From positions 23,956 to 87,955 of the forward strand of contig JAGZLW010000001.1 in the NCBI GenBank assembly GCA_018364455.1: a stretch of 64,000 bases of DNA. Reading direction: 5' to 3'. Position numbers: made by a program. Source of the stretch: Streptococcus mitis. GTDB taxonomy: Bacteria > Bacillota > Bacilli > Lactobacillales > Streptococcaceae. How positions within the stretch are numbered: the first letter of the stretch is position 1; each line of letters begins with the position of its first letter. Shown piece by piece: positions 35,501-38,500 of this stretch.

Positions 35501-38500
35501 ATCCTTTCTATTCTACCATATTTTTTAAGAAATATTGCTGATAAAAGGCTGGTGGATAGAGCTTTTGCCAATCATTTTGAGGATTTCTTTGGTAATAGGT
35601 TTGAAAATACTTATAATAGCTAGTCAAATCTTGCTTAATCTGACAAAACTCACCTACTAGTGGTCGAATTTGTGGATACCATTCTTTCAGCCCATAATTC
35701 AGGACATTTTCTCCCTTTTGATAGGCTTCTGCTTGTTCTTTCATCCAAATAGGATTTTGATAATAGAGTTGTTGCCGGATATAGCGACAGATGTCCTTGT
35801 CCTGAGAAACTGTAAAATGAGATATTTTTTGTTTCTTATAGGGAAAACGTAATATCTCCAGTAGACTACCGTGACCATATGGAAATTCCTTGATTTGATA
35901 ATAGAGTCTGCCGCGGAGATCCTGATGAATGAGATATTTAAGCCTTAAAACCTGTTTTTCCTTGTCTAATTCCCAAACATAAAATCCCATGTTGTGACTG
36001 AAATAGAGAAACCCTTGTTGTAAACGAGTCAACCGCTCCTTGAGCCACAGTTTTTCTCCCAACAACCACAGTACTTGGTAACCCTGACTACGATAACCCT
36101 CACTACGCTCCTTAAGAATTTTTTGAGGCAAGGGACTACATTGAACCTCTAAAGCTAGATTGCCATTTACAAATACATCCGCAATCTGTTTAAGCTCTGG
36201 AAGAGGGTATTCTAATAGCACCTCTGCCTCTTTTTTCAACCAGTGATAAAGGGATTCTTTATTTGCCAGGTGTTCTGGACTTTCATTTTCAGAGGAAAAA
36301 TCACAGTCTTTTAAGGTTTTGTGGGCAAAATGGGTCCGTACACTTGATCCTTGACGCAAACGGAGCTGACCTCCACAAGCTGGGCAAGTGTAGGCTTGCT
36401 TCTCAAGCTTATCCTCTAACACATTTACCAATTCTCCCCTAGCATCTCTCGCAACAAACATGATTTCCCTCCTTTTCTATATTATTCGAAAAAAAAGAAA
36501 AAAGATCAGGAAATTTCCTAATCTTCATCACTCTATAATTTTAGAGTTGCAAGCGACTTTCAAGAGCTTGTGTCCGCACTTCAGAATAGTTCACTTTCTC
36601 ACGATCTGCAAGTCTGACTAGCCACTCTGGAACCGTAACATTTTTTCGAATCGCTTTATTATTATTCACGAAAGGCAAGGGATTGACCTGAATCAAAGTC
36701 ACAAATCCATCAGAAGCTTTTAACATAGAAATGTCACTAGGAGTAGGCAGAGCCAGTCCTTCATCAATATAAGAAGCTAAAACACTCTCAAGCATTTCCA
36801 GAGCATTTTTCATTGCAAGTTCAATCGTTGCTCCTTCAGTCCCGCCTCCAAACTCCGGAAATTCAATCCAGTATCCAGTACCTTCTTTATGAAAAATAGC
36901 AGGATAAGATTTTAGCATAATACACCTCCACAATTTCCAAATCAACTACAATCCCAAATCTTTTAATATTTTTCTCTCTAAACCTTTTCCTAGATCATCA
37001 TTACCGTGAACTGGAATAGTGACAAGATAGGGAACCCCTTCTTTCTTAAAATGATGATGACTTCCTCTCTTACGAACTTCAAACCATCCATTTGCAAGAG
37101 CTAATACTCTTCGAAAATCAAATTCAAACCACGTCAGCTTCTCCTTGACGTACTCAAGTACAGCCTGCGGTCAGCTTCCTAGTTTGCTCTTTGATTTTCA
37201 TTGAGTATAATTTTACCATTTCCTTACCTGTGATTGGCATGTATGGTTACCTTTCTAGCTGAAATTATACTTATAATGCGTATTTTTGTCAATTCTTCTA
37301 TCTTATCTATTCGTAAAAAAAGAAAAAAAAGATCAGGAAAATTCCTAATCTTCATGTGTGTTTACTTGATTTTCTTAGCTAGCATGGTCGCAAAGCGTAG
37401 TTGAATGCGATTGCCATTTTCATCGCGACGGTGCAGATGACCAGGATTTTCATTGTACTTGACCAAGTCCCAATCCTTGTAATAGTCTGCCAATTCTCCC
37501 TTTTTAAATGTGAATGGGAAGTTCACTGAGCAAGGATAATCTTCCGTGTCCATGGCACAGACGATAAGATTATAGCCACCAACAGTGGTATGCTCCTGCA
37601 TATTTTTGATAATTGCAGGAATGCAGTCTGCTTGCAAAAACATCAAAACAACTGTCGATACGATGAAATCATACGCTTGTCCAATACTGGCTGAATTGAT
37701 ATCATAAAGACCAACTGGCATGTCTAGGTCTTCTTGCTCTACAATACTTTGCAAGATTTCAAGAGAAAGTTCATTTTGATCCACAGCTGTCACATCAAAA
37801 CCTTGCTGGGCTAAAAAGAGAGAATTACGGCCTTGACCACAGCCCAAATCCAAGGCTCTCCCTGGTTTTACTATCTGCATTGCCTCTAGAACCTCTGAAT
37901 GAACAGGATTGGTATTGTATTTCTTAGGAAAATAATCCTCAGGTTTACAATAAAATTCCAAATACCATTCCACATCGTCTGTGGCTGCCTCCACTCGATG
38001 CCAAGCTTGAGGTTGTGCCATTAGATTGTCGGCTCCTGCTTCAAAGAGGTGCTCAGCTAAAATCTCACCATCTTCTGTCAATTCAATAAACTTGAGAGCT
38101 CCCTTCAAGACAGTAATTTTCGCCCAAGTCCCAACCTTAGTATTGTGTTTCTTCTGAACAGCCTCTGGCATAGTTTCTTTAGTCCACAAGGGCATACGTT
38201 TATAGGCAACTAATTTTTCCATTTTCATTTCCTCTTTTTATCGCTGATTAACAGCTTTCATCACACGCGCGATGTCACGGTTTTGCTCACGTCGCTTGAT
38301 TGATTCCCGTTTATCATAGTCATGCTTCCCTTTAGCTAAACCTAAAAGGAGCTTGGCATAACCATCTTTGATATAGACTTTAAGAGGAACCAGCGTCATT
38401 CCTGTCCCTTTGGTCTCTTGTTCCAACTTTTGGATTTGCTTTTTATGGAGCAGGAGTTTACGACGACGTTCTGGTTCTTGGTTCCAGATATTGCCCTCTT

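Follow-up and report, generated by a model that had tools for sequence, protein, structure and literature searches.

What has happened to the toxin gene of a hicA-hicB toxin-antitoxin (TA) module in Streptococcus mitis, and how did this module come to lie beside a late competence gene? The module is located between tehB and coiA in the contig JAGZLW010000001.1 of the assembly GCA_018364455.1. The whole stretch of 64,000 nucleotides (nt) that was analysed (positions 23,956 to 87,955 of the contig) is referred to as the window, and coordinates are positions in it unless another locus is named. The first-pass annotation had described an intact hicB antitoxin gene and a HicA core disrupted by a BOX element, bracketed by two direct repeats; every one of these elements was recovered at the place given or a few bases off. 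It is very probable that the locus is a chromosomal type II hicA-hicB cassette in a variable slot between tehB and coiA, that its hicA was killed by a BOX element of the A1C1 type whereas its hicB is intact, and that the repeats are copies of one duplicated unit, consisting of a terminator and a ComX (sigma-X) box.

Interruption of hicA by a BOX element

The two parts of hicA on either side of the BOX element could be rejoined into a HicA of 62/63 residues, which matched PF07927 over positions 1-58 of 58 (E = 2e-19, 69.8 bits; the curated cut-off of both PF07927 and PF15919 is 27 bits). In the database search the rejoined protein was 94% identical to a HicA of 62 aa (P0001), whose cluster is named S. 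mitis HicA by NCBI and which is encoded at a locus of the same order, tehB-hicA-hicB-coiA. DNA alignment with uninterrupted alleles showed one clean insertion of 106 bp in the hicA of the window, with TTA on both sides (37208-37210 and 37102-37104). The 5' fragment (37208..37240, minus strand), identified by three-frame translation and by alignment with the intact alleles, contains the ATG (37240) and 10 further codons (MPITGKEMVKL), and is identical to the N-terminus of P0001. The frame that begins at this ATG enters the BOX and stops at 37154-37156, which gives an open reading frame (ORF) of 28 aa (37154..37240). The 3' remnant (36946..37104, minus strand) contains codons 11/12-62 and the TAG (51 codons), and matched PF07927 by itself with 64.3 bits (profile positions 10-58 of 58), so that the HicA core recognized by eye is also recognized by the profile.

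An insertion of 106 bp is not a whole number of codons and puts the two halves of hicA out of frame. Translation of all frames revealed no ATG, GTG or TTG in the frame of the remnant before its last four codons, and the claim that the HicA frame meets a stop inside the BOX, with no start codon, thus proved correct. The sequence AAGGAG within the BOX was considered as a start signal for the remnant and rejected; only a CTG follows it, and the spacing is too short. A complete translatable hicA ORF of about 60 codons was absent from the window and present in the orthologous loci. The rejoined HicA aligned with the solved HicA structures 6G26, 4C26 and 5YRZ_B, and its residues G24-S25-H26 aligned with the GSH of 5YRZ_B and with the GS(A/H) position of 4C26 and 6G26. 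By residue count from the alignment, H26 corresponds to His36 of the S. pneumoniae HicA (5YRZ_B), which is essential for the RNase activity (PMC6159526). This Gly-Ser-His motif is located in the 3' remnant, and the catalytic motif therefore lies in the part that cannot be translated.

These results indicate that a BOX insertion after codon 11 has split hicA and made it a pseudogene; the gene has not lost its 5' end. The part that encodes the catalytic two-thirds of HicA lacks a start codon, and the reading frames thus show that no toxin can be made from the BOX allele. The earlier description of an N-terminally truncated toxin is right in that the remnant is untranslatable, but a promoter, a ribosome-binding site (RBS), the ATG and 11 codons survive upstream of the BOX. 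The annotation should accordingly read as a hicA pseudogene split by BOX with an intact hicB, and not as a truncated toxin; the proposal that the toxin was inactivated by BOX with the antitoxin left intact agrees with the alignment, the ORFs and the Pfam matches.

The inserted element (37104..37208) is a BOX, a MITE-like repeat, of the boxA-boxC type (A1B0C1), which runs from boxA to boxC on the plus strand, antisense to hicA, and fills the gap of 106 bp seen against the uninterrupted alleles. It is 105 nt long and has terminal inverted repeats of 19 nt (84% complementary); the redundancy at the junction is 1-4 nt, which leaves the length of the target-site duplication unfixed. Its boxC end is letter-identical to those of three other BOX copies in the window, and its terminal 19-mer had five matches in the window against 0.08 expected from shuffled sequences. 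The multicopy ends, the inverted repeats and the hairpin of its transcript thus confirm the identification of this stretch as a BOX. BOX elements are known to disrupt genes and to have terminal inverted repeats and target-site duplications (PMC3049150), and the insertion in hicA is an ordinary kind of gene decay.

The transcript of the BOX in the sense of hicA was predicted to fold into a hairpin of -37.7 kcal/mol (z = -5.3); it has no U-tract, and therefore the BOX is not a terminator. A BOX-borne promoter for hicB was also looked for, and the promoter scan gave only 9/12 matches, which were in the hicA remnant and none in the BOX. In total, four BOX elements were found within the 64 kb. Side-by-side comparison assigned the other three to the types A1B1C1 or A1B2C1, which include boxB (about 3450-3623 and about 6100-6272, both A1B1C1, and 47788 to about 48010, A1B2C1). 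The copy in hicA is the only A1C1 BOX in the window, and it also has a private 'AAATTC' variant in boxA. The Rfam scan of 35400-38400 (E <= 1) gave no RNA family, riboswitch or small RNA; BOX itself is absent from Rfam.

The intact hicB and the regulatory sequences of the cassette

The antitoxin gene hicB (36541..36918, minus strand) encodes 125 aa and has its own RBS (GGAGGTG). HicB matched PF15919 over residues 5-119 (E = 3.5e-10, 40.5 bits), which supports the earlier call of an intact antitoxin gene. It lies on the same strand as hicA, 27 nt after the hicA stop codon, with one promoter upstream and one terminator downstream of the pair. The protein was similar to the pneumococcal HicB 5YRZ_A (E = 3.3e-11) and to 9SVK_B (E = 3.4e-9). 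Its residues 64-121 aligned with residues 90-147 of 5YRZ_A, a weak match of 21 bits and with no separate Pfam match for a ribbon-helix-helix domain; in 5YRZ_A this domain consists of a β-strand (114-119) and two α-helices (122-130 and 135-145) (PMC6159526). The exact HicB sequence is annotated by NCBI as HicB family antitoxin of S. mitis and belongs to a cluster of 580 members at 90% identity; HicA sequences of 62 aa account for about half of the members listed.

A consensus sigma-70 (sigma-A) promoter, TTGACA-17-TATAAT (37264..37292, minus strand), is located between the left ComX box and the ATG of hicA. With 12/12 matches it is the best candidate of the region. Its sequence does not vary between the window and the aligned related loci, and it is homologous to the promoter before hicAB of Streptococcus suis. 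Judged from its sequence and position, this would be the obvious main promoter of the hicAB operon; it was overlooked in the first-pass annotation. The promoter spacer (37258-37292) also contains an imperfect palindrome, ATACGCATTATAAGTAT, and two copies of a perfect palindrome, ATGCGCAT, are present at the equivalent position in S. suis (L101:2455-2490). Both palindromes are candidate HicB operators.

The flanking direct repeats, each with a terminator and a ComX box, were recovered by the repeat search, the folds and the box matches. The left repeat (37308..37355, minus strand, 48 nt; repeat search and terminator scan) includes the tehB terminator hairpin (stem 37353-37328), a T-tract and the ComX box TACGAATA (37308-37315). 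The right repeat (36483..36528, minus strand, 46 nt; same scans) includes the terminator hairpin after hicB (stem 36526-36501), a T-tract and the ComX box of coiA, TTCGAATA (36483-36490). An ungapped stretch of 40 nt is 93% identical between the repeats, which extend to the 48 and 46 nt when a difference of 2 nt in the T-run is allowed. In each of them, a hairpin with a stem of 11 bp (-12.8 kcal/mol on the left, with z = -4.2, and -13.6 kcal/mol on the right) is followed by the T-tract, and the hairpin palindrome looks like an ordinary terminator rather than a dif-like site of site-specific recombination. The left box (T7 and TACGAATA) is 67 nt from the ATG of hicA; the perfect box previously noticed before hicA was confirmed, and it reads TACGAATA in every occupied locus examined. 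The right box (T-run and TTCGAATA) is 21 nt from the ATG of coiA, and its TTCGAATA variant is common, being found also at tehB-coiA sites that lack the cassette (empty sites), including those of genomes labelled S. pneumoniae.

In S. mitis, a SigX box was reported to follow the rule of a T-run directly followed by TACGAATA, at a distance of 13-229 nt from the start codon (PMC6001120). The coiA gene obeys this rule and was induced 59- to 140-fold by the competence-stimulating peptide (CSP), and the TTCGAATA variant was shown to be functional, with SigX-dependent expression (PMC6001120). The suggestion that coiA is possibly fed by read-through is thus not favoured: the terminator of hicB is intact, coiA keeps its own box, and this TTCGAATA variant is present at empty sites and is SigX-dependent in S. 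mitis (PMC6001120). Nothing suggests that the promoter of coiA was lost or that the gene relies on read-through. The hicAB genes are not mentioned in the text and supplements of the paper on the S. mitis CSP regulon (PMC6001120), and HicB is not mentioned in the top-ranked literature for HicB with SigX or ComX.

Elsewhere in the window, TACGAATA occurs only at 58801-58808 (minus strand), after a different hairpin, CAGTTGAGAAGAAATTTTCAACTG, and T6. This box precedes comEA (58131-58781, SLBB and HHH_3 domains) and comEC (55907-58147, Competence and Lactamase_B domains), and the sequence of its hairpin is unrelated to the hairpins that flank hicAB. The comEA-comEC box also follows a terminator hairpin; it is a positive control for the terminator-then-box layout and shows that late promoters of this genome normally have this form.

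The genes around the module are all encoded by the minus strand and are transcribed in the order rnr, smpB, tehB, the hicA-hicB module, coiA and pepF. The upstream neighbour tehB (37362..38228, minus strand) encodes a methyltransferase of the tellurite-resistance type that uses S-adenosylmethionine (PF03848 TehB, E = 3.6e-95; PF09313, E = 8.6e-27), and adjoins the module in all related loci too. The downstream neighbour is the late competence gene coiA (35508..36461, minus strand; PF06054 CoiA_nuc, E = 4.2e-26; PF25164 CoiA_N, E = 9.3e-13). The Pfam matches of both neighbours agree with the position between tehB and coiA assigned to the module at first. CoiA, PepF and HicB proteins identical to those of the window have the consecutive NCBI accessions MBS4947150-52, from a metagenome-assembled genome of S. 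mitis. Without the BOX, the cassette is about 0.72 kb long, and its slot lies between the tehB terminator and the sigma-X promoter of coiA.

Distribution, expression and origin of the cassette

The tehB-coiA spacers were compared in 80 species-representative genomes of the Mitis group, which were fetched by similarity of CoiA. An empty spacer with one unit of hairpin, T-tract and box was found in 39 of the 80, including two genomes labelled S. pneumoniae. These spacers are 68-90 bp long, apart from that of L089 (181 bp, due to a BOX insertion), which is counted among the 39. The hicAB genes with an uninterrupted hicA were present in 19 genomes (spacer 793-808 bp, two repeat copies) and the hicA::BOX allele in two (895-901 bp); in the other 20 the upstream region was different or the contig was too short. 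The spacer between tehB and coiA in the Mitis group is therefore polymorphic, with three states: empty, hicAB, and hicA::BOX-hicB.

Every occupied site has two copies of the repeat and every empty site exactly one. At an empty site, a single unit is joined to the sequence that lies left of the left repeat in occupied sites and, on its other side, to the sequence that lies right of the right repeat. Since empty sites hold one copy and occupied sites two, the alignments indicate that the repeats of 46-48 nt are a real duplication tied to the cassette. The comparison with these 39 single-unit sites, together with the identity of the repeats, also answers the earlier question of duplication versus unrelated ancestral copies in favour of a duplication. 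The hicAB of S. suis shares the sigma-A promoter and has no ComX box; the box on the hicA side thus comes from the coiA promoter, as a copy of it, and is not part of the cassette. In the more divergent lineage L105 the layout is the same and the two hairpin/box units have drifted apart, so the arrangement is old.

The BOX allele was found in Streptococcus sp. NM (L076) and Streptococcus sp. 596553 (L085), and both have the insertion site of the window and its private 'AAATTC' variant in boxA, which indicates that the BOX was inserted only once. The hicA-hicB DNA of these two loci is closest to uninterrupted alleles and not to each other; therefore the BOX allele has been moved and reshuffled by recombination. 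The BOX was also present in 10/10 metagenome contigs returned for the exact HicB of the window, by which an assembly artefact, considered as the source of the BOX in hicA, is ruled out. In total, the BOX allele spans many metagenomes and three species-level lineages. Across all alleles, the ratio of nonsynonymous to synonymous polymorphism (pN/pS) was 0.13 for hicB and 0.16 for hicA, and the cassette is old, patchily distributed and under purifying selection.

Some further variation was noticed at these loci. The otherwise uninterrupted hicA of L077 (locus coordinates about 1829-2014) has a W17* nonsense codon beside an intact hicB, an independent loss of the toxin. At the 'empty' sites of L089 (2320-2440) and L095 (1-35), a different BOX follows the stop codon of tehB and precedes the terminator hairpin, and the spacer has therefore been struck by BOX more than once. 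Both hairpin copies have a derived GATCTGG in L011, L013-L020 and L032, where other genomes have GATTAGG; the shared change suggests gene conversion between the two repeats. The empty site of S. mitis 321A (L075:2432-2501) has lost half of the T-tract (GATCTTTTTTTCGAATA), so that the U-tract of the terminator and the T-run before the coiA box are down to 7 T. There is no complete tehB directly upstream of coiA in 20 of the 80 loci (for example L035, L039, L044 and L049). At least two of these (L071 and L095) are merely cut by the end of the contig, and L095 retains the hairpin unit; most of the rest have a different region, lacking the hairpin, before coiA. The box and RBS of coiA (TTTTTACGAATAATATAGAAAAGGAGG) are still conserved there, and therefore the break of synteny lies just upstream of the coiA box.

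The expression of the cassette may be explained as follows. At empty sites, the single unit serves as the tehB terminator and the coiA promoter at once. With the cassette directly 3' of the box, coiA would stay inducible in competence only if the unit had been duplicated. As a by-product, hicAB lies behind a perfect TACGAATA box and, besides its sigma-A transcription, would probably be induced by sigma-X as well. In the BOX allele, transcription of hicB would start at the sigma-A promoter and pass through the BOX hairpin. Streptococci of this group are not known to have Rho, and polarity across the BOX should therefore be weak. The BOX allele might then leave an orphan HicB as antitoxin and autorepressor. 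The direct repeats could also be substrates for excision or for Campbell-type integration, and the homology of tehB and coiA would permit exchange of the cassette by transformation.

Induction of hicAB or hicB by sigma-X is plausible, since the left box and its T-tract are as good as those of coiA itself. It is more doubtful that hicAB is a genuine member of the sigma-X regulon in the many strains of the S. mitis group that carry the cassette, and we consider this rather improbable. If it were true, strains with an intact hicA would have a burst of TA transcription in each competence episode, which could aid the growth pause or the turnover of mRNA after competence. In the BOX alleles the antitoxin alone would be induced, and it could act as a competence-timed 'anti-addiction' or immunity factor against an incoming or paralogous HicA. 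If the left box is active, the locus would represent a natural TA operon wired to competence, and the three alleles would be a ready experimental series.

Several points weigh against the explanation of the locus as a split hicA with a maintained hicB in a duplicated promoter frame. The transcription of hicB through the BOX, the activity of sigma-X at the left box and the role of an orphan HicB are steps that we infer. The toxicity of the other pneumococcal HicA was reported with conflicting results between hosts (PMC10532202), and that of the present HicA is a prediction. Within the BOX alleles the pN/pS of hicB was 0.33, a value from only three distinct sequences, too few to judge selection on hicB in these alleles, which are recombinant mosaics. 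The occupancy of the slot also tracks its flanks weakly, as it agreed with the nearest neighbour by flank in 43/60 cases for tehB and 39/60 for coiA, where about 32 would be expected, so that the distribution is patchy and no polarity follows from it.

The lack of polarity concerns the origin of the cassette in particular. The cassette might be ancestral, and the empty sites might be deletions by recombination between the two terminator/ComX-box repeats, a history that falls only somewhat short of an even chance. Recombination between repeats of 46-48 nt would give exactly the empty-site sequence that was observed, the drifted repeats of L105 within the same architecture indicate an old duplication, and the derived GATCTGG common to both copies in the L011 lineage indicates that the copies interact. 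However, the close hicAB homologues of S. suis lie on mobile islands without such repeats, which suggests that a cassette can move in, and the empty state is the majority (39 vs 21). Insertion and deletion predict identical junctions, and the data do not discriminate between them. The locus had been regarded as a small TA island that inserted by duplicating the coiA promoter module; its structure and the duplicated repeats fit this view, but the cassette is old and widespread rather than recent.

It is also possible, although unlikely, that the window contains a decaying relic, in which hicB has been functionless since the loss of the toxin and is not yet disabled, and the duplicated ComX box is a neutral scar. 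An antitoxin is no longer needed once its toxin is lost, and toxin decay is recurrent, as in the W17* allele of L077 and the truncated or frameshifted HicA variants P0010 and P0050. The pN/pS of hicB in the BOX alleles, compared with 0.13 overall, is in the same direction, within its sample of three sequences. On the other hand, hicB was full-length in 13/13 loci with the BOX allele, among them three haplotypes with DNA differences of 1-4%; the promoter, the RBS and the terminator are all intact; and the allele is found in many independent metagenomes and three species-level lineages. Finally, an independent and convergent origin of the two hairpin/box units is scarcely credible: a hairpin, T-tract and TACGAATA do recur before comEA in the window, but the comEA hairpin is unrelated, the two copies around hicAB are 93% identical over 40 ungapped nt and alignable over 46-48 nt, and the empty sites have exactly one copy with the outer flanks of both repeats.

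Comparison with known systems

HicAB modules, BOX elements near pneumococcal TA operons (PMC10532202), gene disruption by BOX and RUP (PMC3049150) and the NCBI annotation of the orthologues as HicA and HicB were already known. The literature search found no description of this locus with its three-state polymorphism, the BOX junction in hicA and the duplicated frame of terminator and sigma-X box. Overall, the case is neatly explained and holds little surprise.

The closest counterpart is S. mitis OMI894 (GCA_047459985.1, L011/L032), which shares the tehB-coiA slot, the promoter and the two terminator/ComX repeats. Its HicB is 94% and its HicA 94-95% identical to those of the window, and NCBI names them type II toxin-antitoxin system HicB family antitoxin and HicA family toxin, respectively. 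OMI894 differs in that it has no BOX and an intact hicA of 62 codons, and its box next to coiA reads TACGAATA, whereas that of the window reads TTCGAATA.

The HicBA system of S. pneumoniae TIGR4 (SP1786/SP1787, PDB 5YRZ; Kim et al. 2018, PMC6159526) also has hicA followed by hicB with a spacer of about 26-27 nt. The Gly-Ser-His site of HicA is shared, as is the N-terminal toxin-binding domain of HicB; the HicB of the window also aligns, weakly, with the C-terminal ribbon-helix-helix region of the TIGR4 HicB. However, it is a distant paralogue (HicA E = 4e-6, HicB E = 3e-11) at another chromosomal locus, and the cassette of the window is therefore a second, separate lineage of hicAB in the Mitis group. 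In TIGR4 a boxAC lies 264 nt upstream of the operon (PMC10532202), whereas the BOX of the window is inside the toxin gene. The hicAB of the S. suis islands (L101-L104) is another relative, with a HicA of 78% identity, a HicB of 125 aa and a homologous promoter region (TTGACA/TATAAT); it differs in that it adjoins genes of phage or island type (D5_N primase) and has neither a ComX box nor flanking direct repeats.

Other systems resemble the locus in the BOX element. According to the outline in PMC10532202 of the work of Chan et al. 2011, the pneumococcal yefM-yoeB operon also combines an A1C1 BOX, with a stable hairpin, and a type II TA operon. The BOX of yefM-yoeB lies upstream and, in that outline, supplies an additional promoter, whereas the BOX in hicA destroys the ORF and contains no good promoter. 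The disruption of genes by BOX and RUP in pneumococci (Croucher et al. 2011, PMC3049150), for example of a DNA alkylation repair gene, is similar in the inverted-repeat element and the resulting pseudogene, and perhaps in the short target duplication. The present case differs from these in that a TA toxin of S. mitis was disrupted, and that the uninterrupted allele makes the TTA junction directly readable. Few BOX insertions have such an allele for comparison; here both the junction and the single origin could be read directly.

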